DNA from: Paracoccaceae bacterium
Lineage (GTDB): Bacteria > Pseudomonadota > Alphaproteobacteria > Rhodobacterales > Rhodobacteraceae
NCBI GenBank assembly: GCA_036735505.1
Contig: DAINOF010000001.1
Location: 4,559 to 38,328 of the forward strand
DNA length: 33,770 bases
Direction: 5' to 3'
Part shown: piece after piece, positions 5,754 to 24,284 of the stretch
Layout of the letters: every line of letters starts with the position of its first letter
Numbering within the stretch: the first letter of the stretch is position 1
Position numbers and translations under genes: made by a program
Notes under the pieces: generated by a model
Told to the model about the DNA's origin: nothing
Seen by the model: the letters and a program-made list of their open reading frames with translations, nothing else
The model's database searches: none

Positions 5754-5783
5754 GCTCCCACTCCAGCCATCAAGGACCATACG

Positions 5784-6158: not shown

Positions 6159-6174
6159 GGCGGGACAGCAGGCG

Positions 6175-8497: not shown

Positions 8498-8499
8498 GT

Positions 8500-8521
8500 G
8501 CGGGCGGGCGCCGCCGCCCGC
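8500..8521 (+). terminator. GC-rich hairpin just after the pcl stop (possible weak or partial terminator)
   Basis: GCGGGCGG (8500-8507), loop gcgccg, CCGCCCGC (8514-8521). The 8-bp stem is perfect, but no U-tract follows. Confidence 0.3.
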
Positions 8522-8707
8522 GACCCGGGCGCGCTTCCTCCAACGCTGACATCCGGTCGCGCCATCGCCAGCCCGATCCGCGGCCGGGGAAGGAGCCAAG
8601 CGCAACCTCCTCGCGTCGGACGGGCTGACCGCCAAGCTTTCGGGGCGTGCCACGAAATGCATCCTTAAGGGACTGGCTTTAGTGTCCGCCCCGCCGCCGA
8701 AGGGAGA

Positions 8708-11527
8708 ATGACGATGACAGCAAAGACAGTGCCGGACCCATCGCCCGAGGAAAGGCTGTCGCGTGTCGCTGCCGCGTTTGCCCAGCACGCCCTCGCAAGA
8801 TCGCTCACGCTCGTGTTCGACGCGGCGACGAAGTCTCTCTGGCACGCCAGCGGTGATGCGATCACGCTGCTGGAACTGTCGGAGGACATGCTGTCCGCCG
8901 CGGGCTTCCTCGACCTGTGCGGCGCCTCGGACCAGGACATCGCCGACATCTGGTGGGCGCTCGCGGCCGGGGGGAGCGCCGAATGGTCGGGCCACCTGAC
9001 CGCCAGCCTCTCGTCGACGCGGACGCCCGCGCGATTCGAGGCCGTCTTCGCGGCGACCGGAGAGGGCGAGGGAAGCGTCGTCGTCGTCGCCCGGAAACTG
9101 CATGCCGAGCAGGGGGCGCTCGCAGCGACCATGACGGCGGCAGGCCCATGGACCGCGCTGCAGGAGGTCGTCGGCGTCATAGAATACGACACGGACGGCA
9201 ACGTGCTCAGCGCAAACGACCGAGCCGCCATGGCGCTCGAATATGTCGACGAGCTCGCGGGGCGCAACCACGAGGCGCTCTGGCCGCAATCGCGCACGGC
9301 GACGCCCGACTACATCGAATTCTGGGAGAAGCTGCGGCAGGGCCGGATCGTCGAGGGACGGCACCCGCACCGGTCGGCGGAGGGCGGGGAGCTCTGGTTC
9401 CAGTCGACTTTCGTTCCCGTCCGCGGCGAAGACGGCAGGGTCGCCCGGGTCGTGCAGTGCCTCATGGACGTCACCGAGGAGGCCGGCAGGGCCGCGCGCG
9501 ACCGGATTCTGCTCGACGCCGTCTATGGCGGTCTTCCAGTTCTCGAATACGACCTCGAAGGGCATGTCGTCTCGGCCAACGCGGCGATGCTCGATGCGCT
9601 CGGCGAGACGGCAGAAGAGGTCGGCGGCAAGCACAGCCGGCGCCTGCTGGACGCGGAGTTCGCGCGCATGCCGCGCTTCATCGAGGCGTGGAACATCGCG
9701 CTCGAGGGCGTCGCGCAGATCATCGACATCCACCACCTGCGCAAGAACCGCGTCTCGCTGTGGACCCGAAGCGCTCTCCTTCCGCTGAAGGACCCTGCCG
9801 GCGCGGTGCAGCGGGTGATGGAGATCGCCGTCGACATCCACGGCCTGCAGGAGCGACTGACCAACCTCGAGATGCTCTACGGTGCCGCCAACGCCGCACT
9901 TCCCATCCTCGAGATCGACCTGTCGGGAAAGATCCTGTCGGCGAATGACGCCGCCTGCAGCCTGTTCGACGTCAAGTCGTCCGCCCTCGCCGCCGTCAAC
10001 TTCCGGACACTCGTGCCGAGCGACTTCGGCAGCTCGAAGAAGTACCAGACCTTCTTCGACCGCCTCGCGCGGGGAGAGACGATTTCGGGCGCCTTCAAGC
10101 GGATCAGGCCCGACGGTCAGGTCATCTGGGTGCGCGGACATCATGTCCCGCTCGTCGCCGAGGGGCAGGAGGTTCCGCAGCGCATCCTCGTGCTGATGAC
10201 AGACATCACCGGGGAAAGCGTCAGCCTCGTCGAGGCAGAGGGCAAGTTCGCCGCGATCGAACAGTCCCTGGCGCTCGCCCAGTTCGACATCGACGGGACC
10301 GTGGACTGGACCAACAGGAAGCTCGAGGACGCGCTCGGCCACAGCGCGCTGGACCTGAAGGGGCGCGCGATCGCGAGCCTCCTGCCGCCGGATGACGTCG
10401 ATCGGAACCGCACCCGGTGGGAAACGCTGCGAAACGGCGAGTCCGTCGATATGGACATGCGACTCATCGGCAAGCAGGGCAATGACGTCTGGCTGAACGG
10501 GACCTTCAACCCCGTGCTCGACGACGGCAAGGTGGTGCGCATCATCGCCGTCGCGTCGGTCGTTACCGAGCGGAAGCTGCGCGTACACGACCTCGAGGCG
10601 AACTGGGCAGCTGCAACGCAGGCGGTCCCGCTGGCGGAGTTCGACCCGGACGGCCGCATCGTCTCGGCGAGCGAGGGCTTCCTGCGGATGGTCGGCTACT
10701 CCCTGCGGGAGATCGTGGGCCAGCACCACAGCATGTTCTGTTCGGCCGATCACGTGCGCTCGGCCGACTATCGCGACTTCTGGCTGTCGCTGGGCAAGGG
10801 CGAGGCGCGGAGCGGACGCTTCAGCAACGTCGGCCGGTTCGACCGCGACATCCACATCGATGGGAGCTATGTCCCGATCCGCGGGACCTCGGGCGACGTC
10901 ACCAAGGTCCTGATGTTCGGCCACGAGGTGTCCGATCACGTCGGCCTGCGGCAACTGGCCGTCGACACGGTCGAGCATGTGCGGGAGGCGGTGCAGGAGG
11001 TGCTTCAGGCGCACGCGAGGCTGCGCAGCGCCGCGACCGAAGTCGCCTCGAGCCTCGAGGGCGAGCGCAGCGCCATAGAGACGGGCTCCACGGCGCTGGC
11101 CGGGGGTGTGGCCGAGATCGATGCCGTGGCCGGCGCGGTGGACAGCGTGGCCCGGGTCACAGAGGTCCTGCGCGACATCGCCATCCAGACGAACCTGCTC
11201 GCCTTCAACGCCGCCATCGAGGCGGCGCGGGCCGGCGAACACGGCATCGGCTTCTCGGTCGTCGCCGACGACGTCCGGAAACTCGCCGAGAACAACTCCG
11301 AGGCCGCGCGCGACATCTCGCGGCATCTGCAGACCGTGGCGCAGGGTCTGGCGCGTACGCGCGACGCGGCCAGCAGGACGCTGGGGATGGTGGGCGACGT
11401 GGCTTCCGATCTCGATGTCCAGACCGAACGGGTCTCGGGTCTCGCCGACACCTCCGATGTCCACGTCAAGGCGGCCGATGCGATTGCGAAGGCCATCGAC
11501 AGGCTCCGCACCGCGGCCGTCGCGTGA
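8708..11527 (+). CDS. soluble multi-PAS (about six PAS/PAC repeats) methyl-accepting chemotaxis protein
   Basis: No hydrophobic TM segment is visible. PAS-like units recur, each starting with a pattern such as [56 protein letters not shown] or [14 protein letters not shown]. The C-terminus carries the MCP hairpin-tip signature [38 protein letters not shown]. The start may be ATG 8714, which has better spacing from GGGAG at 8702-8706. Confidence 0.85.
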
Positions 11528-12939
11528 TGCCGGCCGAAACCCGGACGAAAGTGCGGCTGGGGCTGATGACGACCGGCGGCATCACCGTCGGGGTGGACGT
11601 GACTTGCGTCGCCGAGGTGTGCCGGGTCCGGAGCATCTCGCCGATCTTTGCCGCCGCCCCCGGTCTTCTCGGGGCCATCGATCTGCGCGGGGATCCCATC
11701 CCGCTCTTCGATCCAAAGGCGCTCGCGGGGCTCGGGCAGTCAGGCTCCTCCCCCGACCTGGCGGTGATCGCCTCCGGAGAGGGGCGTCGCATCGCGCTTG
11801 GCTTCGACACGATCGAAGGGCTGACCGAGGTCGGCACGAACCGGCTCGCGGCCGCGAGGGGTGTCGGCGGATCGGCTTTCGCAGGCACGCTCGAGGATCG
11901 CGGCCGCATCGTCAGCCTTCTCGATCCCCGCCCGATCCTCGCCCGCACGGACATCCCGTCCGCGACCGTGGCGACCGCCAGCGAAACGCGAGGCGCCGTC
12001 GGCGCGACTTCCCACCTGACGGTGGAGTCGGGCAGCGCGCGCTTCGGCATCGTGGCGACGGCCATCGAAGCCACCGTCCCGCGCCAGACGATCGAACCGC
12101 ACAGCCTCGCGAACGGCGCCTGGCTCGGGATCATCGGCCATTATGGCCGGAGGGTCCCGGTCATGCATCTGAACGCGGTTCTCGGACTGGGCGAGATCCG
12201 CGATCTCGGCACCGCCGAGATCGTGATCCTGCGGCTCCCCGGCGACCGGCTCATCGGCTTCGCCGTCGAGATGATCTGCCGCATGGAGCTTGTCCCCCTC
12301 GCCGGGGAGGCCCCCTTGCCCGCGCTGCTGGCCGGGCGGACGGCAGCGATCCGCTCGGTCCTGCCGGACGGGTCGGGAGGCGATACATTCCTCGTCGACG
12401 TCGACGCCCTCGGCGCGGACGAGGCGCTGCTGGGGATCGCGAGCCTCTCCGTCGAACCCGCCGCGGCGACCTCTGCGGGGACGCGCGCCGCCGCGGCCGA
12501 GGAGGGCGCGCGTTCCGAACGCGAGCGGTATCTCGTCGCGCGGGCGGGGGCGCCCATCGCGATCCCGATCTGCCAGGTCGCGCGGATCGCCAAGCCTCCA
12601 GAACGCGTCACGGCCTTGCCGAGGGCGCCGGACTGGGTCCGCGGGGTGTTTCGCGAGGCAGGCGCCCCCGGCCCCCTCGTCGACCTGCGGCATCGCCTCG
12701 GTTATCCGCCGGCCGAGGCCATGGAGCGGTCGCGCGTCCTGATCGCCGGGTCGGCATCCTCGCCGATCGGCTTCATCGTGGAGGGTGTCGATCACCTCGA
12801 ATGGTCGGACTGGCGGTCCGACGGCCGGCAGGAGGGCATGATCAACGGCGTGGTGTCCCTGCCACGCCTCGGCGCGCAAAGCGTGATGCCCCTCGTCGAC
12901 CTGACCCGCATCGCGGCGACGCTTGAAGGGCTTGCGTGA
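11524..12939 (+). CDS. triple CheW-domain scaffold protein
   Basis: Three CheW-like units: [17 protein letters not shown]...[18 protein letters not shown]; [17 protein letters not shown]...[18 protein letters not shown]; and [21 protein letters not shown]...[20 protein letters not shown]. The start overlaps the MCP stop (GTGATG at 11524-11529). Confidence 0.8.
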
Positions 12940-13010
12940 CGCATCGGGGTTAACGGTCCTGCAACCCGAACGGGCGTAGGACTGCAGTATCGACAGAAAG
13001 GCGATCCCCC

Positions 13011-13940
13011 TTGAACCAGCCCGCGCTCGACGTTGCGAAACTCGCGGCGGCCACGATCGGCCCCGAACGGCCCTGGATCGGCCTCGCGACCGGCCGATCC
13101 TTCTTCATGGACGACGACATCCGCAGGATTGCGGAAAAGGCCGCCTTCTACGCGCGCGCCGGAGCGAGCGTGCATTTCCGCGGGATGGCGGGATCGGGCA
13201 AAACCTCGCTCGCCTTCCACGTGGCCGAGATGCTCGGCCGCCCGATCTCGTTCATCGCCGGCAACAACTGGCTGACCAGCACCGACTTCATCGGCAAGGA
13301 GATCGGCCATTCCTCGGTCTCGGTGGTGGACCGCTACGTGCAGACGGTCCGCCGGACCGAAAGCATGACCCGCGGGGAATGGAAGGAGTCCGTGCTCGCC
13401 GTCGCGATGGATCGGGGACACACCCTCATCTACGACGAGTTCACGCGCGCCTCGCCCGAAGCGAACTCGACGCTCCTGTCGGTTCTCGAGGAAGGCGTGC
13501 TGGTGGTGACGGACCAGACGAGCGAGCGCCCCTACATCAACGCCCATCCCTGCTTCCGGGTGATCCTCACGTCCAACCCCCACGACTACGTCGGCGTCAA
13601 CTCCGCTCCCGACGCCCTCATGGACCGTCTCCTGACGCTCGAACTCGGCGAACCGTCGAGCGCCACGCTCACCGGGATCGTCGCGGTCCGCAGCGGGATC
13701 GACCGTCCGACCGCCCGGCGCATCGTGAGGCTCGTGGAGGCCGCACACAAGGCGACGCCCGATACATCGCTCGGCTCGATGCGCACGGCCATCCTGATCG
13801 CGCGGATCGCGGCCTTCGCCCGCACCGAGGGCCTCCTCAGCGACGAGCTTCTGGCACAGATCGCGGCCGACGTCCTCGCCGGTCGCGGCGCCGAACTCGG
13901 GGCGGCCGCGATGGCGCGGCTCCTCGCAGCCGACACGTGA
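13011..13940 (+). CDS. gvpN: gas vesicle protein GvpN (AAA+ ATPase)
   Basis: VHFRGMAGSGKTSLAFHVAE Walker A, LIYDEFTRASPE Walker B, and overall GvpN/CbbQ-like layout. TTG start at 13011. Confidence 0.9.
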   Translation: MNQPALDVAKLAAATIGPERPWIGLATGRSFFMDDDIRRIAEKAAFYARAGASVHFRGMAGSGKTSLAFHVAEMLGRPISFIAGNNWLTSTDFIGKEIGHSSVSVVDRYVQTVRRTESMTRGEWKESVLAVAMDRGHTLIYDEFTRASPEANSTLLSVLEEGVLVVTDQTSERPYINAHPCFRVILTSNPHDYVGVNSAPDALMDRLLTLELGEPSSATLTGIVAVRSGIDRPTARRIVRLVEAAHKATPDTSLGSMRTAILIARIAAFARTEGLLSDELLAQIAADVLAGRGAELGAAAMARLLAADT

Positions 13941-13956
13941 ACCCGGGGGATCGAGC

Positions 13957-14181
13957 ATGCAGCGTCCCAAGACCTCTCCGATGCGGCGTCCCGCGGCCAT
14001 GTCCGGCAAGGCCGCGCGAACGCCGAAGGAGGCCGCCATCCATCTCGTCCGGCTCGAGTTCGACCGCAGCAGGATCCAGATCGGCCTGAGGCAGGCCGAG
14101 ATGCGGGCCGATCTCTACCGGGCCGAAGATGCCGCCATCGAGCGGCGACGGCGCGCGCTGCTCGACATCCTCACGCGCTGA
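13957..14181 (+). CDS. small basic coiled-coil protein in the gvpN-to-gvpO position (possibly GvpV-like)
   Basis: 74-aa product MQRPKTSPMRRPAAMSGKAARTPKEAAIHLVRLEFDRSRIQIGLRQAEMRADLYRAEDAAIERRRRALLDILTR. Its position after gvpN matches gvpV in other clusters. The assignment rests on position and size only. Confidence 0.4.
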   Translation: MQRPKTSPMRRPAAMSGKAARTPKEAAIHLVRLEFDRSRIQIGLRQAEMRADLYRAEDAAIERRRRALLDILTR

Positions 14182-14203
14182 CCCTCCCCAAGGAGCCACG
14201 TCC

Positions 14204-14512
14204 ATGGAACACCCGGCACCCGACGTCTTCAGCAGCAAGCGCAAGGCCGCCGGCGTCGGCCCGACCGAGGCCATCGAGGCGGCCCGGCGCGCCATCTCGG
14301 CGACCGGGCACGCCGACATCGACGCCGTCGCCGCCTGCGAGGCCGTCGAGGACGGATCCTGGCGGGTCGAGGTCGAGGTGGTGGAGAGCCACGCGAGGAT
14401 GGGCGACAACGATCTCATCGCCGCCTTCGACGTGCGCGTCGCCGAGACGGGCGAAGTCCGCGGCTTCCGCCGCCTGCGCCGCTACTTCCGGGAAGACGGG
14501 CCGCAGACATGA
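14204..14512 (+). CDS. gvpO: gas vesicle protein GvpO
   Basis: AGGAG at 14191-14195, ATG at 14204. The product ends ...WRVEVEVVESHARMGDNDLIAAFDVRVAETGEVRGFRRLRRYFRED, typical of GvpO C-termini. Confidence 0.75.
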   Translation: MEHPAPDVFSSKRKAAGVGPTEAIEAARRAISATGHADIDAVAACEAVEDGSWRVEVEVVESHARMGDNDLIAAFDVRVAETGEVRGFRRLRRYFREDGPQT

Positions 14513-14829
14513 GCTTCAGCGTGCAGAACCCGATGCACCGTGACGGCCTCGCCGACGTGCTCGAACGGATCCTCGACAAGGGGATCGTCATCGCCGGCGA
14601 CGTCTCGGTGTCGCTCGTCGGCATCGAGCTTCTGACGATCCGGCTCCGCCTGCTGATCGCGACGGTGGACAAGGCCAAGGAGCTCGGCATCAACTGGTGG
14701 GAGACCGACCCGCGCCTGACGGCCTCCGCCGATCGGCTGGCCGAGGACAACGCAGGCCTCCTGCGGCGCATCGAAGAGCTCGAGGCGCGGCTTCTGGCCT
14801 CGGACCGCGCGCAGGAGGCCGTCGGATGA
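14509..14829 (+). CDS. gvpJ: gas vesicle protein GvpJ (GvpA-family minor structural protein)
   Basis: [55 protein letters not shown] is the GvpA/J core plus the J-type extension. ATGA overlap with gvpO. Confidence 0.9.
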   Translation: MSFSVQNPMHRDGLADVLERILDKGIVIAGDVSVSLVGIELLTIRLRLLIATVDKAKELGINWWETDPRLTASADRLAEDNAGLLRRIEELEARLLASDRAQEAVG

Positions 14830-15386
14830 AGGGTCCACGAAAGCCGGCCGGCGGCGATGCGCGTGGCGACATCGACCTGAAGCTCGGCAACCTCCTTGGC
14901 GAACTCGGCTCCGCCCTGTCCGAGATGATCGACCGGCTGGACCAGGGAACCACGGGCGAGATCCGGCGCGACCGCGAGTTCACGACCGAGCGGGGTCCGG
15001 TCCGGGCCCAGGCGGGGATCCGGATCCGGCTCGCAGGGACCGAGGTGCCGCTCAAACGGAACGCTGCGGCGCCGGCAGCGACTCCCGACGCGGCCGCGCC
15101 CCCACCACGCGCCGCAACCGCGCCTGCCCCGCGCCCGATCCAGGCCGAGGTGGTCGACGACGGCCGGGTCTGGCGGCTGACGGCCGAGCTTCCCGGCGCC
15201 GCCCGGGAGGACCTCGATCTCGCCGTCGAGGAGGGACATCTCCTGATCACGGCGCGGACCCGCACCCGCAGCTTCGCCGACCGCGTCGCGCTGCCCGCCT
15301 CGACCGGGATCGCCGATCTGAGGGTGAGCCTGCAGAACGGGATCCTCGAGATCGAGGCCGCGTCACACAGGGGTCCGGACCGATGA
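14826..15386 (+). CDS. gvpH: Hsp20/alpha-crystallin domain protein (GvpH-like)
   Basis: C-terminal VWRLTAELPGAAREDLDLAVEEGHLLITARTRTRSFADRVALP...LRVSLQNGILEIE is a small-HSP fold. ATGA overlap on both sides. Confidence 0.7.
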   Translation: MKGPRKPAGGDARGDIDLKLGNLLGELGSALSEMIDRLDQGTTGEIRRDREFTTERGPVRAQAGIRIRLAGTEVPLKRNAAAPAATPDAAAPPPRAATAPAPRPIQAEVVDDGRVWRLTAELPGAAREDLDLAVEEGHLLITARTRTRSFADRVALPASTGIADLRVSLQNGILEIEAASHRGPDR

Positions 15387-16147
15387 TCTACCTCTACGGC
15401 CTCCTTGCCCCCGATTTCGACACGGACGCGACGACGCTCACCGCGCTCGAGGGCGTGACCGGGGAGGTCGCGCTCGCGAACCTCGGCCCGGCTCTTCTCG
15501 TCCATGGCCGCTGCGAGGAGACGGAGATCCTGCCGCGGCGGCGCCACCTTCTCGCCCATGCGCGCGTCCTCGAGACGCTGGCCGGGGCCGGCGCGGTGCT
15601 GCCCATGCGCTTCGGGATGATCACACCGTCCATCGAGACCGTCGCTGCGGCGCTGACGCAGCAGAAGGACGACCTCGCCGCCCAGTTTGCGGCGGTGCAG
15701 GGCTGCGCCGAATATGGCATCCGCGTCGTGTTCCCCCGCGACGCGGCGCTGCCCGCCGCCGTCGACGGCAATGCGGCGCTCGCGCGCGAGCGGTCGCGGC
15801 TTCTGGCCGCGGGGCGCGCGGGGCGCATGGAAACGGCCGAGTTCGGGCGGCAGCTTGCGGAGGTGGTCGACCGGCGCCGGGCCGCCACGCAGCGCGAGCT
15901 TGTCGCAGCCCTCGCCCCCGAATTCGCCTCCTACGTGCTGCGGGCGCCTGAGGAAGACGTGCAGGTCCTGGCGGTGGATGCGCTCGTTCCCGACAGCCGC
16001 GCGGACGGTCTCGGGGCCCGGATCGAGGCGCTGGCGCGGGCGTCGGCCTTCGCGCCCGGAGCAGAGCCGCAGGTTTCCATCGTCGGCCCGGGCCCGGCCT
16101 ACAGTTTCGTGCGGCTCACCCTGGAACTCGCGCGGCAGGCCGCCTGA
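15383..16147 (+). CDS. gas vesicle protein GvpF/GvpL family (copy 1)
   Basis: MIYLYGLL N-terminus, HARVLETLAGAGAVLPMRFGMI, and C-terminal VSIVGPGPAYSFV (variant of the GPWPPYSF motif). Confidence 0.85.
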   Translation: MIYLYGLLAPDFDTDATTLTALEGVTGEVALANLGPALLVHGRCEETEILPRRRHLLAHARVLETLAGAGAVLPMRFGMITPSIETVAAALTQQKDDLAAQFAAVQGCAEYGIRVVFPRDAALPAAVDGNAALARERSRLLAAGRAGRMETAEFGRQLAEVVDRRRAATQRELVAALAPEFASYVLRAPEEDVQVLAVDALVPDSRADGLGARIEALARASAFAPGAEPQVSIVGPGPAYSFVRLTLELARQAA

Positions 16148-16377
16148 TGGGCCTCCTGTCGCGACTCCTTCTCCTGCCGGTCTCGGCACCGCTCTCGGGG
16201 TCGCTGTGGATCGCCCAGCAGATCACCGAAAGCGTGGAGCGGGAAAGAAACAGCCCCGCGGCCCTTCGCGCCGCCCTGCGCGAGGCCGAGCTGCGCCTTA
16301 TCGCGGGCGAGCTCTCCGAAGAGGACTACGAAGTGATCGAGACCGACCTCCTCGTCCGCATGAGGGAAGCGGGATGA
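16147..16377 (+). CDS. gvpG: gas vesicle protein GvpG
   Basis: MGLLSRLLLLPVSAPLSGSLWIAQQI...LRLIAGELSEEDYEVIETDLLVRM is the typical GvpG pattern. TGATG overlap with the upstream gene. Confidence 0.8.
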   Translation: MGLLSRLLLLPVSAPLSGSLWIAQQITESVERERNSPAALRAALREAELRLIAGELSEEDYEVIETDLLVRMREAG

Positions 16378-18467
16378 CCGAGGCGGGCGTCTTCCGCATC
16401 GTGGTGGCAGGCGAGAGGTCGCGGGGCCTCGTGCGCATGGCGCGCGCCGATCTCGAAGCGCTGGCGCTGCGGTCGGGCGACACGGTCCGCATCGACGGCG
16501 CCCGAAGCACGCATGCGCGCGTGGTCGCCGGACAGGGCCCGGAGGGCACCGTCGTCATGGAGCCGCTCGTGGCCGAGAACGCGGGCCTCGGGCCCGACGG
16601 GGCGGCGCAGGTGACGCCCGCGCGCCTGCCCCGTCTGGACAGCGTGCTCCTGCGGATCGAGACCGGGCATGCCCCGGCCCCGGCGGATCTTTCGGACGCC
16701 CTCTTCGACATGACCCTCACGCAGGGCGACCGGATCCGGCTCGTCCTGCCTGGCGGCCGCGCCGCCGAGGCGTCGGTCGTCGCGGCGGCCCCGCCCGGCG
16801 GCGGCCTGTTCGGCGAGGGCTCCGTCGTGACGCTCGAGGCCGCACCGGCGACGGCGCCCGCCTTCGACGGCGTGGGCGGCCTTCAGGAGCAGATCGCGCG
16901 TGTCGAGGAGATGATCAGCACCCCGTTGCTCCGGCCCGAACTCTACGAGCGGCTCGGGATCTCGCCGCCGCGCGGCATCCTGTTCTGCGGCCCGCCCGGA
17001 TCGGGCAAGACGCTTCTCGCCCGTGCCGTCGCGCGCCGCACCGAGGCAGCGTTCTTCCACATCGACGGCCCCGAAATCATCTCGAAGCACTACGGCGACA
17101 GCGAAGAGGCGCTGCGCCGCGTCTTTGACGCCGCTGTAAAGCGCGCGCCCTCCATCGTCTTCATCGACGAACTCGACGCCATCGCGCCGCGCCGCGACGC
17201 GCTGTCGAGCGAAAAACAGGTCGAGCGCCGCGTCGTGGCGCAGCTCCTGACCCTTCTCGACGGGATCGAGGACCGGGGCCGGGTGGTGGTCATGGCTGCC
17301 ACGAACCTGCCCGACAGCCTCGATCCGGCGCTCCGCCGTCCGGGCCGGTTCGACCGCGAGATCGTGTTCCGCCCGCCGACGGAGGCGCAGCGGCGCGACA
17401 TCCTGCGCATTCAGCTCGACCGCGCACCGCTCGACGCCGATGCCGATCTCGACTCGGTTGCGGCCGCGACGCATGGCTACGTCGGCGCCGATCTCGCCGC
17501 CCTGGCGCGGGAGGCAGCGGTGGCGGCGCTCACCCGCACCGTCGCCGAGGCGGGCGGCGAAGACCGCGTGCGGCTCGAGGACCTGAGGATCACCCGTGCA
17601 GACCTGGCGCGGGGGCTCGCGGCGACCGGGCCCAGCGCGCTGCGCGGCGCGACGCAGGATGCGGTTCCGGTGACCTGGGACGACGTGGCCGGCGCGGATG
17701 CGGCGCGCGAGGCGCTGCAGCAGGCGGTGATCTGGCCCCAGCGGCATCCTGCCCTCCTCGCCGCACTCGGCGTCCGCCCGGCGCGGGGCGTGCTGCTCGC
17801 CGGCCCGCCCGGCTGCGGCAAGACGCTCGCGGCACGCGCCCTCGCAACCGAGAGCCGGATGAACTTCCTTCACGTGCGCCCGCCGACCCTCCTGTCGCGA
17901 TATCTGGGCGAGGCCGAGCGCGCGGTCGCCGAGCTCTTCGAGCGCGCCCGCGCCACGGCGCCGGCGCTCATCTTCTTCGACGAGTTCGACGCGCTGGCGC
18001 CGCGTCGCACCGGGCGCGACCCCACGCTCGACCGCATCGTCGCGCAGCTCCTGACCGAGTTCGACGGCCTTGCCGGTCACCCCGGCGTCGTGGTCCTCGC
18101 CGCGACGAACCGACCCGCCGCGATCGACCAGGCCCTGACCCGGCCGGGCCGGTTCGATGTCGTCGTCCGGTTCGCCCTTCCCGACGCGGCCGCGCGGCAG
18201 GCGATCCTTGCCGCGCATCTGAAGGGCCGCGCGGCGAGTGCGGACGTCGACACCGCTGTGCTCGCCGCGGCGACGCCGGACTTCTCGGGCGCCGATCTCG
18301 CGGCGCTTGTCGACGAGGCCGCGCGCGGGGCTCTCGCCAGCGCGCTCGCCGGCGGCGCGGGCGAGATCCGATCGCTCGGCCGGGACGATCTCGAGGCCGC
18401 GCTGCGCCGGATGCTCGAGGGGCGCGCGGTGCGCCGGGACGACTACATAGCGGAGGTCACCGAATGA
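16374..18467 (+). CDS. Cdc48/p97-like tandem AAA+ ATPase (N-domain, D1, D2)
   Basis: N-terminal substrate-domain-like VFRIVVAGERSRGLVRMARADLEALALRSGDTVRIDG. D1 has GPPGSGKTLLARAVA and IVFIDELDA. D2 has GPPGCGKTLAARALA and LIFFDEFDA. RPGRFD arginine-finger regions are present in both. ATGA overlaps with gvpG (16374) and the next gvpF/L (18464). Confidence 0.9.
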   Translation: MTEAGVFRIVVAGERSRGLVRMARADLEALALRSGDTVRIDGARSTHARVVAGQGPEGTVVMEPLVAENAGLGPDGAAQVTPARLPRLDSVLLRIETGHAPAPADLSDALFDMTLTQGDRIRLVLPGGRAAEASVVAAAPPGGGLFGEGSVVTLEAAPATAPAFDGVGGLQEQIARVEEMISTPLLRPELYERLGISPPRGILFCGPPGSGKTLLARAVARRTEAAFFHIDGPEIISKHYGDSEEALRRVFDAAVKRAPSIVFIDELDAIAPRRDALSSEKQVERRVVAQLLTLLDGIEDRGRVVVMAATNLPDSLDPALRRPGRFDREIVFRPPTEAQRRDILRIQLDRAPLDADADLDSVAAATHGYVGADLAALAREAAVAALTRTVAEAGGEDRVRLEDLRITRADLARGLAATGPSALRGATQDAVPVTWDDVAGADAAREALQQAVIWPQRHPALLAALGVRPARGVLLAGPPGCGKTLAARALATESRMNFLHVRPPTLLSRYLGEAERAVAELFERARATAPALIFFDEFDALAPRRTGRDPTLDRIVAQLLTEFDGLAGHPGVVVLAATNRPAAIDQALTRPGRFDVVVRFALPDAAARQAILAAHLKGRAASADVDTAVLAAATPDFSGADLAALVDEAARGALASALAGGAGEIRSLGRDDLEAALRRMLEGRAVRRDDYIAEVTE

Positions 18468-19366
18468 TGCGGCGCGAACTCGTGGCCATCCTTCCCGGCG
18501 AGGGTCCGCCGACCCCTCCCGAGGGATGCACCGTCGTCCGCGCGGCGAAACATGCCGCGGTGCTTCGGTGGAGCGGTCTCCTGCCGGCACCACGCAAGGC
18601 CGACGCACTGCGCGCCGCGGCGGCACGGGCGCGCATTCTCGAGACGCTGATGACCTCGGGCACGGTGCTGCCGGTCCTGCCCGGCCAGCGCATCCGCGCG
18701 TCGGAGGCCGAGCGGCTCGTGACGGCGAACCTTCCCGTGCTCGAACGACTGGCGTCCCAGTTCGCAGGACGCCGGCAGTTCCAGATCACGCTGCGCTGGG
18801 ACGTGACGCGGGCCGTCGCCCGGTTCGGCGCTTCGGAGGGCGCGGCGGCCGCAGACGCCGCGGGTCCAGCCATCGCCGCGCGCCTGCGGGAGCGCGTGGC
18901 GCAGGCGCTCGAGGACACCGGTGCCGAGGTGATGATGCTCCCCGTGGCCGAAGATGTGGTGGCCAACGCGGTCGTGCTTGTCGACGCGGCGTCGGAACCG
19001 CTGCTCGACGCGGCGCTCGCCGAGATCGACGGTCTGTGGACCGAGGGGTTCCGCATCAGGATGATCGGCCCCTATCCGCCGGTCAGCTTCGCCTCGCTCG
19101 TCTTCGACCGGATGGACCGGCGTCAGATCGAGGAGGCGCAGGCGGCCTTCGGCCTCGACCCTGGCTTCTCCGAAACCGCGCTGCGGCAGGCCCGGCGCGA
19201 GGTCATCATGCAGGCGGGGGCGGACCGGCACGAGGCGCTGCGCCGGCAGGCCGACCTGCTCGCCTGCGTGGCACGGCTTGGAGGGGCCTGCGCCCGGGTC
19301 CACGTCGCCCGCGTCTGGAGCGAAGGACTGTCCTCGGCCACGGCCGCCCGGGCGCGCGCAGCATGA
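18464..19366 (+). CDS. gas vesicle protein GvpF/GvpL family (copy 2)
   Basis: RILETLMTSGTVLPVLPG, FRIRMIGPYPPVSFA, and length and layout typical of GvpL. Confidence 0.75.
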   Translation: MMRRELVAILPGEGPPTPPEGCTVVRAAKHAAVLRWSGLLPAPRKADALRAAAARARILETLMTSGTVLPVLPGQRIRASEAERLVTANLPVLERLASQFAGRRQFQITLRWDVTRAVARFGASEGAAAADAAGPAIAARLRERVAQALEDTGAEVMMLPVAEDVVANAVVLVDAASEPLLDAALAEIDGLWTEGFRIRMIGPYPPVSFASLVFDRMDRRQIEEAQAAFGLDPGFSETALRQARREVIMQAGADRHEALRRQADLLACVARLGGACARVHVARVWSEGLSSATAARARAA

Positions 19367-20064
19367 CGGGGCGCCCGCTCCTCCTCCTCGGCCTCGTGCC
19401 CGCCGGATCCCATCCCGCGGCGCAGGTGCCGCCCCACCGCCGCATCGCCTGCGAGCCGGACCTCGTCGCGATCGCCCTCGACGCGCCGGAGGATCCGGGG
19501 GACAACCCCGAAGAGGCGGCGCTGGGACTCGCCGTCCTCCAGGCCACGATCCTGTCCGTCTATGCGGAAGCGGGCGACGTCCTGCCCGTCGCGCTCGGCG
19601 CCGCGTTCTCGGATCCCCGCGCGCTCATCGCGCATCTGATGCTCCATGCGGACCGCATCGCGGCCGAACGCGGCGCGCTCGCGGGATCGGCCGAATATGT
19701 CCTCGCGATCGACCGGCGCGCGCCGCCCCCGCGGGCGGTCCCCGCGTCCGGACCCTCCGGCTACCTCCGGCAGCGCCTGGCCGAGCGCAACGTCCGCCGC
19801 GACCTCGAGGACGACAGGCGCGCCTTCGCCGCCACGGCGCTCGCGGCGCTTCGGTCCGCGGGTGCGGAGCTTGCGCTGCCGCGGACGCCGGCGCCGACCG
19901 TCCTCCTCTCGGTTTCGGCGCTCCTGCCGCGTCCGGCGGTCGCGAAGGTCGCGGACGCACTGGCCGACATGGCGACCAAGGCGGCAGCCCTCGGGCTCGC
20001 CATGCGCATGATCGGGCCCTGCGCCCCGTTCAGTTTCGTGTCGTCGGATCGACCCGATGCATGA
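19363..20064 (+). CDS. gas vesicle protein GvpF/GvpL family (copy 3)
   Basis: LQATILSVYAEAGDVLPVALGAAF and LAMRMIGPCAPFSFV. ATGA overlap at 19363. Confidence 0.7.
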   Translation: MTGRPLLLLGLVPAGSHPAAQVPPHRRIACEPDLVAIALDAPEDPGDNPEEAALGLAVLQATILSVYAEAGDVLPVALGAAFSDPRALIAHLMLHADRIAAERGALAGSAEYVLAIDRRAPPPRAVPASGPSGYLRQRLAERNVRRDLEDDRRAFAATALAALRSAGAELALPRTPAPTVLLSVSALLPRPAVAKVADALADMATKAAALGLAMRMIGPCAPFSFVSSDRPDA

Positions 20065-20278
20065 CCGCGCCGGCGAGATCCGCATCGCCTCGGCGGAAGA
20101 CGCGCTGCAGAGCCGGGAAGGCCGTCTTGTCGATCTGGTCGATTCGCTTCTCGACAAGGGCGTCTGCCTGAGGGGGGAACTCTGGCTGTCGGTGGCGGAT
20201 GTGGACCTCGTCTTCGTCGGGCTTGATCTCGTCCTCGGCAGCCATGACACGATCTCGCGCACAGGCCGGCGCGCATGA
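20057..20278 (+). CDS. GvpA-family small protein (GvpS/GvpM-like)
   Basis: LVDLVDSLLDKGVCLRGELWLSVADVDLVFVGLDLVL matches the GvpA-family core (LxDxLDKGxxxxGxxxxSxxxxxLxxxxL). 8-nt overlap with the upstream gene. Confidence 0.7.
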   Translation: MHDRAGEIRIASAEDALQSREGRLVDLVDSLLDKGVCLRGELWLSVADVDLVFVGLDLVLGSHDTISRTGRRA

Positions 20279-20919
20279 GGGCGCTGGGCTGGACACTGCC
20301 AGGCGAAGCGGCACCCGATGGTCTTGCAACGGTCGATCTCGACACCTGCGCGGTGGTCGTGGCCGCCGATGCGGCCGGCGCGCAACCGCGGGACCTGATG
20401 CGGCTGCAGATCGCTTGCGCGCGCCACCTCCCTGCCTTCCTGCCGCTCGCGCCGAACGGCGTCACGACGCTCGCCGCGGCGCTCGACACGGGCCGCACCC
20501 GCAGCGCGGCGATCGCCGCCCGCCTCGAGGCACTGCGGGGTCTCGTGCAGGTCTCGCTGCGCGCCGACTGGTCCGCCCCGTCCGCGGACGGATATCCCTC
20601 GCGCCCCACGGCCACGCCCGGCCGGGGCTGGCTCGCTGCGCGCGCGGAGGTCCGGCGCCGGAACGAGGAGCAGAGGGTTCGCATCGCAGCAAGCCTTCGT
20701 GCCGTCCTCGCAGCGCATGCGACCCGGGGGCTCGTCGAACGGAACGCGCCCACCATCCTGCGGCTCGACGCGCTCATGCCGGCTGAAGCGGCCACGCCCG
20801 TGGACGGGCTGGCCGACGCGCTGGCCGGGCGCACGGACTTGCGCGACGCGCGGCTGGTGCTGACGGGGCCCTGGCCAGCGCTCGCCTTCGCGGATCTGCC
20901 GGAGGCCGGGCCATGCTGA
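20275..20919 (+). CDS. divergent GvpF/GvpL family protein (copy 4)
   Basis: The C-terminal ARLVLTGPWPALAFADL matches the GPWPPYSF motif. Overall size and position fit. ATGA overlap at 20275. Confidence 0.6.
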   Translation: MRALGWTLPGEAAPDGLATVDLDTCAVVVAADAAGAQPRDLMRLQIACARHLPAFLPLAPNGVTTLAAALDTGRTRSAAIAARLEALRGLVQVSLRADWSAPSADGYPSRPTATPGRGWLAARAEVRRRNEEQRVRIAASLRAVLAAHATRGLVERNAPTILRLDALMPAEAATPVDGLADALAGRTDLRDARLVLTGPWPALAFADLPEAGPC

Positions 20920-21248
20920 ACGCTGACGACCCTCTCGCCGTGGACCCGGAAGATATCCGGGAGGCGCTGGCGGCGATCACCCGGAGCGGCCGGGTCAGGA
21001 TCGATCCCGACCGGGTCGAGCAGGACCTCGCCCGCCTCGTGCTGGGACTGGTCGAGTTCCTGCGACAGCTGATGGAGCTTCAGGCTATCCGCCGGATGGA
21101 GAACGGCACGCTGACGCCCGAACAGGAAGAACAGGTCGGAATGACGCTCATGCGCGCCGAGGGTGCGATCCATGATCTCGCCGGCAAGTTCGGCCTCTCG
21201 CCCGGCGATCTCGCGCTCGATCTCGGCCCGCTCGGCCGCACGATCTGA
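20913..21248 (+). CDS. gvpK: gas vesicle protein GvpK
   Basis: RIDPDRVEQDLARLVLGLVEFLRQLMELQAIRRMENGTLTPEQEEQVGMTLMRAEGAIHDL...LDLGPLG is the canonical GvpK pattern. Confidence 0.9.
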   Translation: MLNADDPLAVDPEDIREALAAITRSGRVRIDPDRVEQDLARLVLGLVEFLRQLMELQAIRRMENGTLTPEQEEQVGMTLMRAEGAIHDLAGKFGLSPGDLALDLGPLGRTI

Positions 21249-21306
21249 GCGCGGGAAAGGTGGCGGTAACCTTTGTTGCCTTACGGTCCGACGTGGAGGT
21301 TGCGAC

Positions 21307-22881
21307 GTGCCCCGGGATGACGCTCGCCAGAAGGCGGTCTTCGAACTCGCCGATCGGATCGGTCTCGCCGACGCCAACGCGGTGGTCGACGGCACTCTGC
21401 GTCTCGCCCTGTCGCCTGCGGCGCGGGCGCGCTGCGCGCGGTCGCAGGACCGGCTGGCGCGGATCATCGCGGAGGGTCGGCATGTCTATGGCCTGACGAC
21501 CGGCTTCGGTCCGCTCGCGAACCGGCTGATCGGGCCCGGACAGGGTGTAGAGCTCCAGCAGAACCTGATCCATCATCTGGCGAGCGGCCTCGGCCCCCCT
21601 CTGTCCTGGCCCGAGGCCCGCGCGGTCGTTCTGTCGCGGCTCGTGTCGATCTCCCGCGGCGCCTCGGGGGCCTCGTCCGAGACCATCGCGGCGCTCGAGG
21701 TCCTGCTCGCCTCGGATCTCGCCCCTGCCCTGCCATCGCGTGGCACGGTCGGCGCCTCCGGCGATCTCACGCCGCTCGCGCATCTCGCCCTCTGCCTTCA
21801 GGGCCGCGGGTCGTTCCTGACGCGGGACGGGGCGGCTGTGCCTGGCACCGCGGCGCTCGCGCAACTCGGGCTGCAGCCTCTGTCGCTCGCAGCGCGCGAC
21901 GGCCTCGCGCTTGTGAACGGAACCTCGGCCATGACCGGGATCGCGCTCCGCAACGCGCAGACCGCCGGGCGCAGCGCCGGCTGGGCGCTCGCCCTGACGG
22001 CAGCGGCAGCCGAGTGCCTCGCCGCGCGGGCGGAGGCGTGGAGCGCCGAGGTCTCAAGTCTGCGACCGCATCCGGGACAGGTCCGGGCGGCCGCCATCCT
22101 GCGCGACCGGATCGCGGGCAGCGAACGGGTCGAGAAGCGCCCCCTCGCCCTGCGTCGGCTCGGCGTGGACGGTGTCGCGGTCGAGGCGACGGCCGGGCAG
22201 GACGCCTATTCGCTGCGCTGTGTCCCGCAGGTCGTCGGCGCCTTCCTCGATCAGCTCACCTGGCACGATCAGGTGGTCGAGACAGAGCTGAATGCGGTGA
22301 CCGACAATCCCGTCCTGCCTGAAGATGGCGAAGCGCCGGCCCTGCACGGGGGCAACTTCATGGGCCAGCATGTGGCCCAGGTCTCGGACGGGCTGAGCGT
22401 CGCGGCGACGGTGCTCGGGGGACTCGCCGAGCGCCAGATCGCCCGGCTCACGGACGAGAAGCTGAACGCGGGCCTGCCGGCCTTTCTCCATGGCGGCGCG
22501 GCAGGTCTCAATTCGGGGTTCATGGGCGCGCAGGTCACGGCGACGGCGATCGTGGCGGAGATGCGCGCGACCGGGGCGGCCTCGATCCATTCCGTGTCGA
22601 CGAACGGCGCGAATCAGGATGTCGTCTCGCTGGGGACGATCGCCGCAAGGCTCGCCGCGGCGCGCCTCAGGAACGTCGCCGAGATTCACGCGATCCTCGC
22701 GCTCTGCGTGGCGCAGGCGATGGAGCACCGCGGCGGACCGGAGTGCCGGGGCTTCTCGCCTGCCGCGCGGGCCGTCCACGCGGCAGTACGGACTGTGAGC
22801 CCTTCACTCGTGACGGACCGTCCGCTAGCGGAGGAGATCGAGATCATGACGCAGGTCGTGGCCTCGGCACCTCCCCCGTAA
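21307..22881 (+). CDS. tal: tyrosine ammonia-lyase (MIO-dependent aromatic amino-acid ammonia-lyase)
   Basis: GGAGG at 21295-21299, then GTG at 21307. GTVGASGDLTPLAH is the MIO-forming Ala-Ser-Gly. NLIHHLASGLG carries the His-Leu selectivity pair (H90/L91, codons 21574-21579) that I recall for Rhodobacter TAL. Near-colinear with the R. sphaeroides TAL sequence as I remember it (YGLTTGFGPLANRLI, QDAYSLRC, NAVTDNPV, ALHGGNFMGQHVA, NQDVVSLGTIAARL). Confidence 0.9.
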   Translation: MPRDDARQKAVFELADRIGLADANAVVDGTLRLALSPAARARCARSQDRLARIIAEGRHVYGLTTGFGPLANRLIGPGQGVELQQNLIHHLASGLGPPLSWPEARAVVLSRLVSISRGASGASSETIAALEVLLASDLAPALPSRGTVGASGDLTPLAHLALCLQGRGSFLTRDGAAVPGTAALAQLGLQPLSLAARDGLALVNGTSAMTGIALRNAQTAGRSAGWALALTAAAAECLAARAEAWSAEVSSLRPHPGQVRAAAILRDRIAGSERVEKRPLALRRLGVDGVAVEATAGQDAYSLRCVPQVVGAFLDQLTWHDQVVETELNAVTDNPVLPEDGEAPALHGGNFMGQHVAQVSDGLSVAATVLGGLAERQIARLTDEKLNAGLPAFLHGGAAGLNSGFMGAQVTATAIVAEMRATGAASIHSVSTNGANQDVVSLGTIAARLAAARLRNVAEIHAILALCVAQAMEHRGGPECRGFSPAARAVHAAVRTVSPSLVTDRPLAEEIEIMTQVVASAPPP

Positions 22882-22893
22882 CGGCGCGGCGGA

Positions 22894-23106
22894 TCAGGCC
22901 GACGCGGGATCGACCGTCAGGCCCACGGCCTCGGCATATTTCAGCCAGCTTTCGATGGAGGCCACAACGGCCCTCACCTCGATGGCGATCAGCTCGATCC
23001 CCACCAGCGACACGCGGACGAAGGCGTCGATGACGATGCCCTTGTCCAGGATGCGGTCGACCACTTCCGCGATGGACGCGGACGCAACACTTTTCTCGAT
23101 AGCCAC
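22894..23106 (-). CDS. gvpA: major gas vesicle structural protein GvpA
   Basis: AAGGAGG (complement of 23112-23118), 5 nt spacer, GTG at 23106. The product [64 protein letters not shown] closely matches the consensus GvpA sequence as I recall it. The ORF-track start at 23151 is probably too far upstream. Confidence 0.95.
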
Positions 23107-23227
23107 CACGGCCTCCTTGTACGATGATGCGCACCCTGACTGGATGCGCAAAAGAGGCTAGCTTGAGACGTCCTAAGGTCTCATGAACAAGAGAGATTTG
23201 CGAATACGCCTGCGTCGGGCGCTGGTG
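23107..23227 (-). promoter_or_regulatory. lower-GC gvpA upstream region with repeats (candidate promoter/operator)
   Basis: Direct repeat GATGCGCA at 23126-23133 and 23143-23150, each containing the palindrome TGCGCA. Inverted repeat GAGAC-N8-GTCTC at 23165-23182. Visibly less GC-rich than the flanks. Confidence 0.3.
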
Positions 23228-24190
23228 TCACGCGACGTGCAGGCGCCGATTCTCGGCGACGATCTCGGCCACGGTCATGCGCATGTCGCGCAGCGTTTCC
23301 TCGATCGAGGCGCGGCGTCCGCGCGCATCCTCTTCGAGCGCCCCTGCGAGGAGCAGGGCGAGATGGTCGAGCCGGCCCGCGATCGAGGCGATCTCTGGGG
23401 GCGTCGCGGCGGGTGGTCCGGCCCCGATGGCCCGGGCCAGCGCGCCGATCCGGTCGCCGAGCAGTCCGAGCGAGGTCTCGAGACCGGCAGAGGGGCTGGC
23501 GGCGGAGGGTTCGGCCGGCGGCGGCTGCTCGCCCTTCGCATCCAGCCGGGCCTCGACCGCCTCGAGGCGGGCGGCGAAGGTGCCGAGCGCCAGCACGATC
23601 TCCTGCGCCGCCGCCTCCTGTCGCCCGAGCGTCGTCTGGAGCGCCGCGGCGAAGCCGGCGAAGCTGCGGTGCTGGGCCGTGAGATCGGGCGCGGGTGCGG
23701 GCCGGGTCGCGATCCGCTCGACCGCGGCGACAAGCGCCGCATGCCGCGTCTCGGTGCCGGAGGCCGCGTCCGCGATCGCCCGCTCGAGCCCGTCGAGCCG
23801 CGCCGCCAACGCGTCCAGTCGCCGCTCACCTTCTGAGTCGTCCCGGTCCGTCGGGCGGACCGGGTCGTGCGACAGGTGTTCGACCGCCGCCTCGATGCGG
23901 TCGAGACGGTCGCGCAGGCTGCCCGCGGGCACCCCGCCCGCGTGGATCATCCCGGGTTCGAACTGCTCGATGATGACGAATTCAAGCTGATCGAAGCGCT
24001 CGGCCAGGCGTTCGATCCGCATGTCGAGGTCGGCGGCCTGCCCGGCATCGCCGCGCTCGGCGCCGGCCGCATCCAACGCATCGGAAGGACCGCGCCCGGG
24101 AACGCCGGCGGCCGCGCGCTTGGCGAGGCTGAAGCAGATCGCGGGCGATGTCGCGTCCAAAGCATCGGTGACTGGCGTCTGATCGTTCAT
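23228..24190 (-). CDS. repeat-containing coiled-coil protein, unknown function
   Basis: Likely start MNDQTPV (ATG at 24190). An RL(D/E)xLExx motif recurs at least six times: RIERLAERFDQLEF, RDRLDRIEAAVEHL, RRLDALAARLDGLERAI, AARLEAVEARLDA, GDRIGALARAI, AGRLDHLALLL. The repeats are separated by Pro/Ala linkers. Confidence 0.6.
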   Translation of the reverse strand: MNDQTPVTDALDATSPAICFSLAKRAAAGVPGRGPSDALDAAGAERGDAGQAADLDMRIERLAERFDQLEFVIIEQFEPGMIHAGGVPAGSLRDRLDRIEAAVEHLSHDPVRPTDRDDSEGERRLDALAARLDGLERAIADAASGTETRHAALVAAVERIATRPAPAPDLTAQHRSFAGFAAALQTTLGRQEAAAQEIVLALGTFAARLEAVEARLDAKGEQPPPAEPSAASPSAGLETSLGLLGDRIGALARAIGAGPPAATPPEIASIAGRLDHLALLLAGALEEDARGRRASIEETLRDMRMTVAEIVAENRRLHVA

Positions 24191-24284
24191 GTTGCACTCC
24201 CGCTCATGAACTCCAGCTTTGCAGCCTGCCATGACTTCCTTAAGCGGGTGTTGAGGGCCGCGACCATCCCGGGCATCGGCGGCC

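Follow-up and report, generated by a model that had tools for sequence, protein, structure and literature searches.

An operon for gas-vesicle assembly in a Paracoccaceae bacterium contains a gene for a double-ring AAA+ ATPase of the Cdc48/VAT type, joined to the assembly genes on either side by overlapping codons. The operon lies in a stretch of 33,770 nucleotides (nt; assembly GCA_036735505.1, contig DAINOF010000001.1), which is referred to here in its entirety as the window. The encoded protein has the domain architecture of Cdc48 with intact catalytic and pore residues, and its relatives are associated with gas-vesicle (gvp) genes across phyla. We give a probability of roughly 0.55 to the reading that this ATPase is a hexameric two-ring unfoldase that serves gas-vesicle biogenesis as a dedicated accessory factor; vesicle building thus probably has an accessory chaperone that has so far gone unrecognised. 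The motor itself is a familiar one; its context here is conserved, dedicated and previously undescribed. Until now, gas-vesicle growth has had a single ATPase assigned to it, GvpN (PMC10903477), which is also the sole ATPase named in two reviews (PMC10903477, PMC9501494) and in a phylogenetic mining study. Searches of the accessible literature for gas vesicle or gvp together with Cdc48, AAA ATPase or Hsp20 found no mention of a Cdc48-type ATPase in gvp clusters, a passing mention in subscription-only papers being possible.

A complete double-ring ATPase

The gene and the parts of its product are located as follows, with residues counted in amino acids (aa):

16374-18467, + strand: gene for the Cdc48/VAT-type double-ring AAA+ ATPase, 697 aa (open frame, Pfam and NCBIfam matches, structure matches)
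16374-16856, + strand: N domain (about residues 1-160), a double-psi beta-barrel plus a second beta subdomain, the presumed docking site for adaptors or substrates (CDC48_N match, model, Foldseek)
16989-17354, + strand: D1 catalytic core, with Walker A at 16989-17012, the pore loop KHYGDSE at 17085-17105, Walker B at 17154-17177 and sensor-1 and arginine fingers at 17295-17354
17802-18158, + strand: D2 catalytic core, with Walker A at 17802-17825, the pore loop RYLGEAE at 17898-17918, Walker B at 17967-17990 and sensor-1 and arginine fingers at 18099-18158
18438-18464, + strand: C-terminal tail DDYIAEVTE, which has the clade-typical D-[FYH]-[IL], then about 5-10 variable residues, and no HbYX motif at the end

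The open reading frame (ORF) runs through 697 codons uninterrupted by stops. Pfam places two AAA domains (1.2e-80) and two AAA_lid_3 domains on the protein, and a CDC48_N match on residues 16-82 that, at 31.5 bits, falls slightly below the gathering score of 35.1. CDC48_2 has no match at the sequence level, and a search with the N-terminal 162 residues alone matches residues 15-74 to double-psi beta-barrel chains (E=3e-4). The top NCBIfam model is TIGR01243, the CDC48 family (602.1 bits, residues 14-692); because this score does not reach the curated whole-protein cut-off of 802.65 bits, we regard the ATPase as a divergent member of the family. Clp-specific domains such as Clp_N are absent among the 25 best of the 33 Pfam families matched, where AAA_2 appears as a partial match only (39.5 bits).

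Both rings carry the full set of Walker A, Walker B, sensor-1 and arginine-finger elements. The Walker A motifs read GPPGSGKT (residues 206-213) and GPPGCGKT (residues 477-484), the Walker B motifs IVFIDELD in D1 and LIFFDEFD in D2, and the arginine-finger regions RRPGRFD and TRPGRFD, while each ring has an aromatic pore loop (KHYGDSE and RYLGEAE). Across 65 aligned clade members, residues K212, D265, E266, N311, R322 and R325 of D1 and K483, D536, E537, N579, R590 and R593 of D2 are invariant. Judged by these motifs, the protein is apparently a fully active two-ring threading enzyme, and aromatic pore loops in both rings are compatible with substrate threading by a hexamer.

Structure comparisons point the same way. 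The nearest solved structures are those of VAT (5vc7/5g4g, E 6.5e-145), followed by p97/Cdc48. An AlphaFold2 monomer model, built from an alignment of 65 homologues, has a mean predicted local distance difference test score (pLDDT) of 88.5 and a confident, beta-rich N domain with elements from E5 to E156. Foldseek aligns this model over its full length to p97/Cdc48 (E 9e-71, 711-731 columns, 36-38% identity), the N-domain region included, and the best template modelling (TM) scores are obtained with substrate-engaged states of p97/Cdc48. A preliminary description, made from the sequence alone, had presented a 697-aa protein with a Cdc48-N-like domain, two complete AAA modules and RPGRFD regions, and translation, Pfam, NCBIfam and the motifs all bear this out.

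Embedding in the gas-vesicle operon

The ATPase gene is the eighth of 13 genes in the accessory operon, of which the following concern us most; the shell gene lies outside it, on the opposite strand:

13011-21248, + strand: whole gvp accessory operon, 13 genes in the order gvpN, orf74, gvpO, gvpJ-like, hsp20-like, gvpF, gvpG, cdc48-like, gvpL, gvpF', gvpS-like, gvpF'', gvpK (Pfam, NCBIfam)
13011-13940, + strand: GvpN, a MoxR-type AAA+ protein of about 310 aa (TIGR02640, 1e-73)
14826-15386, + strand: Hsp20/alpha-crystallin-type (GvpH-like) gene, two genes upstream of the ATPase; candidate holdase partner (PF00011, 23.9 bits against a cut-off of 20.8)
16147-16377, + strand: gvpG (PF05120, 5.4e-19)
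18464-19366, + strand: gvpL/F paralogue (PF06386, GvpL_GvpF, 3.9e-14)
22894-23151, - strand: gvpA, major shell protein, whose true start is probably internal (about 70 aa; PF00741, 2.7e-16)

From gvpO to gvpK, 11 consecutive junctions each overlap by 1-8 nt. Those of the ATPase gene are ATGA overlaps of 4 nt: its ATG at 16374 precedes the gvpG stop at 16377, and the gvpL ATG at 18464 precedes its own stop at 18467. Terminator-like sites are no commoner in the operon than in shuffled sequence, and the scans for promoters and terminators were uninformative. At third codon positions the ATPase gene has a G+C content (GC3) of 0.90, and the other operon genes range over 0.78-0.92; the gene thus does not have the look of a recent foreign insertion. 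Taken together, these features argue that the ATPase is co-transcribed, and very probably co-translated, with the accessory proteins, which are thought to act early in vesicle formation. The position between gvpG and a gvpF/L gene with ATGA overlaps on both sides, and a separate GvpN starting at 13011, had already been noted in the preliminary description and are confirmed by the family matches and junction coordinates listed above. Pfam and NCBIfam annotation reveals no protease gene in the gvp cluster of the window.

The operon encodes four GvpF/L paralogues (15383-16147, 18464-19366, 19363-20064 and 20275-20919, all + strand), three of which lie downstream of the ATPase gene; the model clusters in reviews have GvpF and GvpL only. 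The gvpA gene of the window is 84-97% identical to those of two related loci, L001 and L081 (L numbers are our handles for the loci compared).

Relatives in Rhodobacterales

Protein databases hold hundreds of relatives of about 695 aa with 50-78% identity to the ATPase, and the named ones belong to Rhodobacterales (Roseivivax, Yoonia, Cognatiyoonia, Sulfitobacter and Roseicyclus). This clade is recognised by the D1 loop KHYG[DE]SE, by a D2 loop without Trp and by a C-terminal D-[FYH]-[IL] with a short variable tail. Both Walker pairs are intact in nearly all of the 120 top matches. The proteins are variously named 'AAA family ATPase' (the window clade), 'CDC48 family AAA ATPase' (those resembling the protein of locus L016, see below) and 'transitional endoplasmic reticulum ATPase'.

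The gene order gvpG-cdc48-gvpL is kept in all six loci obtained by look-up or genome scan (L001, L081/L082, L083, L084 and L085/L086; 54-73% identity). L081 retains the window's order, although about 270 nt separate its gvpG from its ATPase gene. Direct adjacency of gvpG and the ATPase gene recurs in L001, in L083-L086, in L141 and L160, and in L090, a short metagenome contig (59% identity) where gvpG is directly upstream. Two scans define the wider sample. One, of genome contigs with the single ATPase protein, returned mostly generic archaeal Cdc48 (about 42% identity) and one Rhodobacterales locus, and served as the background set; the other, of metagenomes with the clade alignment, listed 80 loci, with one further Rhodobacterales-type contig (L090) among the matches listed.

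Gas-vesicle-linked Cdc48 genes in other phyla

Besides the window, at least 30 loci from at least five named lineages and from metagenomes carry gvp-linked Cdc48 genes with conserved neighbours, and the association spans Negativicutes/Bacillota, Acidobacteria, Chlorobi and, among Archaea, Bathyarchaeia. Gvp genes are present at 16 of the 80 metagenome loci listed; among the 11 nearest to the window protein, ten are gvp-linked, and the contig of the eleventh, at 3.4 kb, does not extend far enough for a judgement. Another four gvp-linked loci turned up by chance in the generic genome-contig scan (L010, L014, L016 and L028), and when relatives of the L016 protein were looked up, all three (L087, L088 and L089) proved to be gvp-linked as well. 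Since gvp clusters are a tiny part of a minority of genomes, we infer that co-occurrence at this frequency is unlikely to be due to chance. The preliminary description had suggested Proteobacteria as the group in which to look for a Cdc48-like gene in this position. The association is there, but it is not restricted to that phylum, as it reaches Bacillota, Acidobacteria, Chlorobi and Archaea.

The neighbourhoods are similar throughout. Hsp20/GvpH is the nearest upstream gene of Cdc48 in 14 loci, GvpG takes this place in the Rhodobacterales clade and its two closest relatives (L141 and L160), and GvpF/L lies directly downstream in most gvp-linked loci. A Bacillota metagenome-assembled genome (L016) has gvpN, gvpL, gvpF, gvpG, gvpJ, a DnaJ zinc-finger protein, gvpK, gvpF/L, gvpS, Hsp20, Cdc48 and a helix-turn-helix (HTH) protein, with two gvpA genes near the cluster, and a Negativicutes locus (L087) repeats this order. 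A GvpA-family gene, an Hsp20-like gene, Cdc48 and an HTH gene are found in L088, a contig that also bears the spore-coat genes cotJA and cotJB. In L089 the Cdc48 gene sits within the operon, between GvpH/Hsp20 and gvpF-gvpG-gvpL, and in Acidobacteria (L010) GvpF/L and Hsp20 are directly upstream of it. In the Chlorobi locus (L014), gvpA, gvpN, gvpJ, GvpH and an ArsA/Get3-like ATPase are found upstream of Cdc48, at distances of 2.5-8 kb.

The Bathyarchaeia cluster (L028) comprises gvpN, gvpO, gvpF, gvpJ, gvpK and gvpF together with a GvpL-J-domain fusion, Hsp70, a GvpA-like gene, Cdc48 and Hsp20. In the fusion (5766-6764), GvpL/F is joined to a DnaJ J-domain (PF06386, 5e-38; PF00226, 3e-13), and its end overlaps the codons of the Hsp70 gene (6761-8653). 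This arrangement provides independent evidence for a transfer of clients from GvpL-type proteins to ATP-driven chaperones.

Some further features of these clusters were noticed. In those of the Bacillota type, Cdc48 is followed by a gene for an HTH_3 (XRE-type) protein of about 285 aa (L016, 12130-12993; L088, 3130-3975; and L087, where Cdc48 at 10001-12178 overlaps the HTH_3 gene at 12175-13047 by 4 nt). The ArsA/Get3-type ATPase of L014 (6114-7454, 2.6e-74) follows GvpH in a cluster that also has a ParE toxin gene. Get3-type ATPases are chaperones of hydrophobic tail-anchored proteins, and the one in L014 may be another recruited chaperone.

A neighbour-joining tree was calculated from 166 Cdc48 sequences over 698 columns, with gvp linkage judged within 6 kb. 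One split of 33 sequences contains 29 that are gvp-linked, two that are unlinked (L107 and L117) and two on contigs too short to judge, and thereby captures 29 of the 31 gvp-linked sequences, the window included. Outside it, true gvp linkage is limited to L028 and L138 among about 71 evaluable sequences; a lone AAA 'GvpN' cross-match had also flagged L066 and L050, which were rejected as false positives. Bootstrap support is 100% for the Rhodobacterales clade and 77% for that clade plus L141 and L160. At the level of sequence, then, gvp-linked Cdc48 proteins clearly tend to cluster. They also differ from generic homologues in their loops: the latter have mostly K[FY]YGESE in D1 and KWVGESE in D2, whereas on the gvp side KHYG is common in D1, and the Trp of the D2 loop is often replaced by F or Y. 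HbYX tails dock archaeal ATPases on the 20S proteasome, and many generic archaeal homologues have HbYX-like tails. By a strict pattern, the C-terminal HbYX motif occurs in 0 of 29 gvp-side proteins against 13 of 128 others (the C-termini of 120 homologues were also viewed). This, together with the lack of any protease gene in the cluster, suggests an unfoldase that works alone.

Comparison with known ATPases

The closest known systems are VAT of Thermoplasma acidophilum and archaeal Cdc48, which provide the best sequence match among solved structures and share the N-D1-D2 layout. Like the window ATPase, VAT has aromatic pore loops in both rings (the p97 D1 ring differs) and works in a prokaryotic setting with no ubiquitin system. 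The window ATPase differs in lacking an HbYX tail for 20S docking, in its D1 loop (KHYG, not K[FY]YG), in a D2 loop without the usual Trp, in a score short of the CDC48 cut-off (602 against 802.65 bits) and in being encoded in a gas-vesicle operon. With eukaryotic Cdc48/p97/VCP it shares the full-length structural match and an N domain that is probably for adaptor binding. Its N domain is shorter than that of p97 (about 160 aa), its D1 pore loop is aromatic and its C-terminal tail is another one, and the organism has neither ubiquitin nor UBX/Npl4-Ufd1 adaptors.

GvpN is an ATPase encoded in the same operon, but it is a single-ring AAA_5/MoxR protein of about 310 aa without N domain or tandem rings, whereas the Cdc48-like ORF has tandem PF00004 modules. 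The Cdc48-like gene occurs alongside GvpN in every examined locus with long enough flanks; it is thus additional to GvpN in those loci and not a replacement for it. As a functional analogy only, a holdase gene beside a two-ring threading ATPase recalls small heat-shock proteins (sHsps) working with ClpB/Hsp104 (and Hsp70), and L028 has Hsp70 and a J-domain as well. ClpB/Hsp104, however, belongs to another AAA+ clade, and the window ATPase has neither the ClpB middle domain nor Clp_N.

Cdc48-type ATPases exist elsewhere in bacteria, as seen from Cpa/Msm0858 of Actinobacteria (5e7p match) and from the 'CDC48 family AAA ATPase' of Rhizobiales plasmids (41-53% identity). Actinobacterial Cdc48-like proteins are linked to the proteasome. 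The Rhizobiales plasmid matches differ in that none is of the gvp type: a plasmid tblastn search found generic CDC48 genes only, with no gas-vesicle annotation under the listed matches, whose flanks were not inspected. Among the homologues, P0054, P0123, P0124 and P0129 are Cdc48-like proteins of about 1000 aa; P0054, with three Walker A motifs and as many pore loops, may be a triple-ring variant.

Neighbouring genes in the window

The operon is flanked by genes that resemble light-sensing and chemotaxis systems:

5784-6158, + strand: 124-aa PAS protein with the size and position of photoactive yellow protein (PYP)
7235-8497, + strand: AMP-binding ligase, p-coumaroyl-CoA-ligase-like
21163-22881, + strand: aromatic amino-acid ammonia-lyase, tyrosine-ammonia-lyase (TAL)-like (Pfam on this ORF)
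among 8708-12939 (+ strand) and 24285-26423 (- strand): methyl-accepting chemotaxis protein (MCP) with five PAS domains, triple-CheW protein and PAS-GGDEF-EAL protein

The PYP, ligase, lyase, MCP and CheW genes are present in all Rhodobacterales-type loci. A neighbourhood of PYP and gvp genes is known from Rhodobacter capsulatus and Loktanella (PMC3646047); the pairing of MCP/CheW with an organelle for flotation seems to be unexplored. Two overlapping ORFs without a Pfam match, 6175-6753 (192 aa) and 6750-7238 (162 aa), both on the + strand, separate the PYP-like gene from the ligase, and L084 and L085 have ORFs of similar size at the same place.

Within the operon, a 74-aa ORF between gvpN and gvpO (13957-14181, + strand) has no Pfam match. 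It is 56-72% identical in L001/L081, has a jackhmmer match in L083, and a 74-aa gene is called in L081, L084, L085 and L086; it may encode an unnamed small Gvp protein. The longest ORF of gvpO (14129-14512, + strand) overlaps it by 53 nt. An internal ATG at 14204 appears the likelier gvpO start, as it would give 102 aa where homologues have 101-103 aa. Next to gvpA, a 334-aa ORF (23228-24232, - strand) has no Pfam match, and at or near the equivalent place L081, L084 and L085 have ORFs of 409-631 aa without solid Pfam matches. The 334-aa ORF could encode the outer stabilising (GvpC-like) protein of this cluster type.

Proposed role and alternatives

We propose that the ATPase is made from one polycistronic mRNA with GvpF, G, L, J, S and K, and that ATP-driven threading through its aromatic pore loops would most probably keep the GvpA-family proteins (GvpA/J/S), which are very hydrophobic, in a state fit for assembly. 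Produced without chaperones, GvpA, J and M aggregate, and GvpF binds GvpA while GvpL binds GvpJ and GvpM (PMC9501494, PMC10903477). The ATPase might extract GvpA-family proteins from off-pathway aggregates held by the GvpH-like sHsp, strip them off GvpF/L carriers or recycle the nucleation complex. The likeliest adaptors of its N domain would be GvpF/L, perhaps also GvpG. It would act by itself, with no protease as partner, and would add to GvpN instead of replacing it. We infer these clients and adaptors, and the direction of action (assembly rather than disassembly), from three lines of evidence with which assembly chaperoning fits best: the translational coupling to assembly genes, the recurrence beside Hsp20/GvpH and gvpF/L, and the chaperone machinery in sister clusters, namely the GvpL-J-domain protein with Hsp70 (L028), the DnaJ zinc-finger protein (L016) and the ArsA/Get3-like ATPase (L014). 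Conserved gvp-cluster membership across unrelated taxa, our operational mark of a gas-vesicle accessory protein, is found for the ATPase. When the preliminary description spoke of a dedicated segregase, the word 'dedicated' was apt: comparative genomics strongly supports it, with the position kept in Rhodobacterales-type loci and the gene recurring in gvp clusters of unrelated phyla.

Several observations weigh against this proposal. The best-studied clusters, those of Halobacterium, Anabaena, B. megaterium and Serratia, make vesicles without such a gene, to judge from the gene lists in the reviews (PMC10903477, PMC9501494), so it is not universally required. Co-expression with gvp genes is no proof that the clients are Gvp proteins. 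In L014 the link is looser, as two opposite-strand genes separate Cdc48 from the gvp genes, and L107 and L117 lie on the gvp side of the tree without gvp genes within 6 kb. The exact 33-member split has a bootstrap of 15% (mean best Jaccard 0.85); owing to this low support we do not claim strict monophyly, and independent or repeated recruitment of Cdc48 into gvp clusters is possible. Either history, single origin or repeated recruitment, argues for a functional tie.

The same motor could also run in the opposite direction, extracting GvpA or an outer stabilising protein from finished or collapsed vesicles. Shell protein would then be recycled, or buoyancy lost actively in response to a signal, perhaps light, by way of the PYP/MCP/CheW genes nearby. 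Cdc48-type ATPases do extract subunits from stable assemblies, as is generally known of p97 and VAT, both pore loops are intact, collapsed shells need clearing somehow, and the Rhodobacterales clusters are flanked by PYP, chromophore enzymes, a five-PAS MCP and a triple-CheW protein. Even so, we consider such a disassembly engine unlikely: translational coupling to assembly genes means that the ATPase is made at the time of vesicle construction, it carries no regulatory domain and no HbYX tail, the cluster has no partner protease, and the association persists in lineages whose clusters lack PYP/MCP genes. Thus, of the two roles offered in the preliminary description, the chaperoning of aggregation-prone Gvp proteins fits best, while signal-controlled dismantling found no specific support and has co-expression with the building genes against it. 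A bolder version sees GvpH(sHsp)-Cdc48-GvpL/F as an ancient mobile extraction and insertion machine acting on the shell, with GvpA inserted at the growing seam or pulled out, controlled in Rhodobacterales by PYP/MCP/CheW and making buoyancy reversible by enzyme action beyond synthesis and dilution; this seems to us rather unlikely. It is quite improbable that the unfoldase has a regulatory task, adjusting by unfolding how much there is of a gvp regulator or of a single limiting Gvp protein, much as the repressor GvpD acts on the activator GvpE in haloarchaea. For GvpD, a regulatory function and an NTP-binding motif are described (PMC9501494), and the HTH_3 gene after Cdc48 in Bacillota-type clusters, overlapping by 4 nt in L087, would suit such a task, but that neighbour is absent from the window and all Rhodobacterales-type loci, and what is conserved from phylum to phylum is adjacency to genes for structural proteins and chaperones (Hsp20, GvpG, GvpF/L), not to regulators.

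Two further readings take the ATPase out of vesicle assembly proper. An older Hsp20-Cdc48 pair might have been carried into gvp clusters by chance or co-transfer and serve general proteostasis as a stress chaperone, since Hsp20 is directly upstream of Cdc48 also in archaeal loci without gvp genes (L012, L017, L018, L029, L049, L050, L054, L069, L075, L112 and L140). We hold this to be very improbable: the Rhodobacterales gene lies away from Hsp20, between gvpG and gvpL with overlapping codons, and does so down to 54% identity; the clade has its own signature (KHYG[DE]SE, no D2-loop Trp, a distinct tail); and a passenger gene is not expected to persist inside a tightly coupled operon in so many lineages. 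In these gvp-less archaeal loci one or two Hsp20 genes precede Cdc48, and the sHsp-Cdc48 pair may be an older conserved module. Least probable is that the ATPase delivers misassembled Gvp proteins to a compartmental protease, in the manner of archaeal Cdc48/VAT and the 20S proteasome. Its nearest characterised relatives are VAT and archaeal Cdc48, and degradative quality control would be useful for aggregation-prone shell proteins. Yet none of the 29 gvp-side proteins ends in the HbYX type of tail that many generic archaeal homologues have, no protease gene lies in the window cluster, and Alphaproteobacteria are not known to have a 20S proteasome.

Implications for gas-vesicle biology

What keeps GvpA-family proteins, hydrophobic in the extreme, in solution and brings them to the growing vesicle is an open question, and current models have one ATPase, GvpN (PMC10903477, PMC9501494). 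A second motor whose mechanism is well understood would offer a directly testable handle on vesicle assembly, and its recurrence beside an sHsp and GvpF/L in many phyla points to specific partners. A Cdc48-like motor may also explain why some gas-vesicle clusters are poorly expressed in heterologous hosts, which is relevant to acoustic reporter genes. If the assembly role proposed here is true, the ATPase would be a rare bacterial enzyme of the Cdc48 type with an identifiable dedicated pathway.

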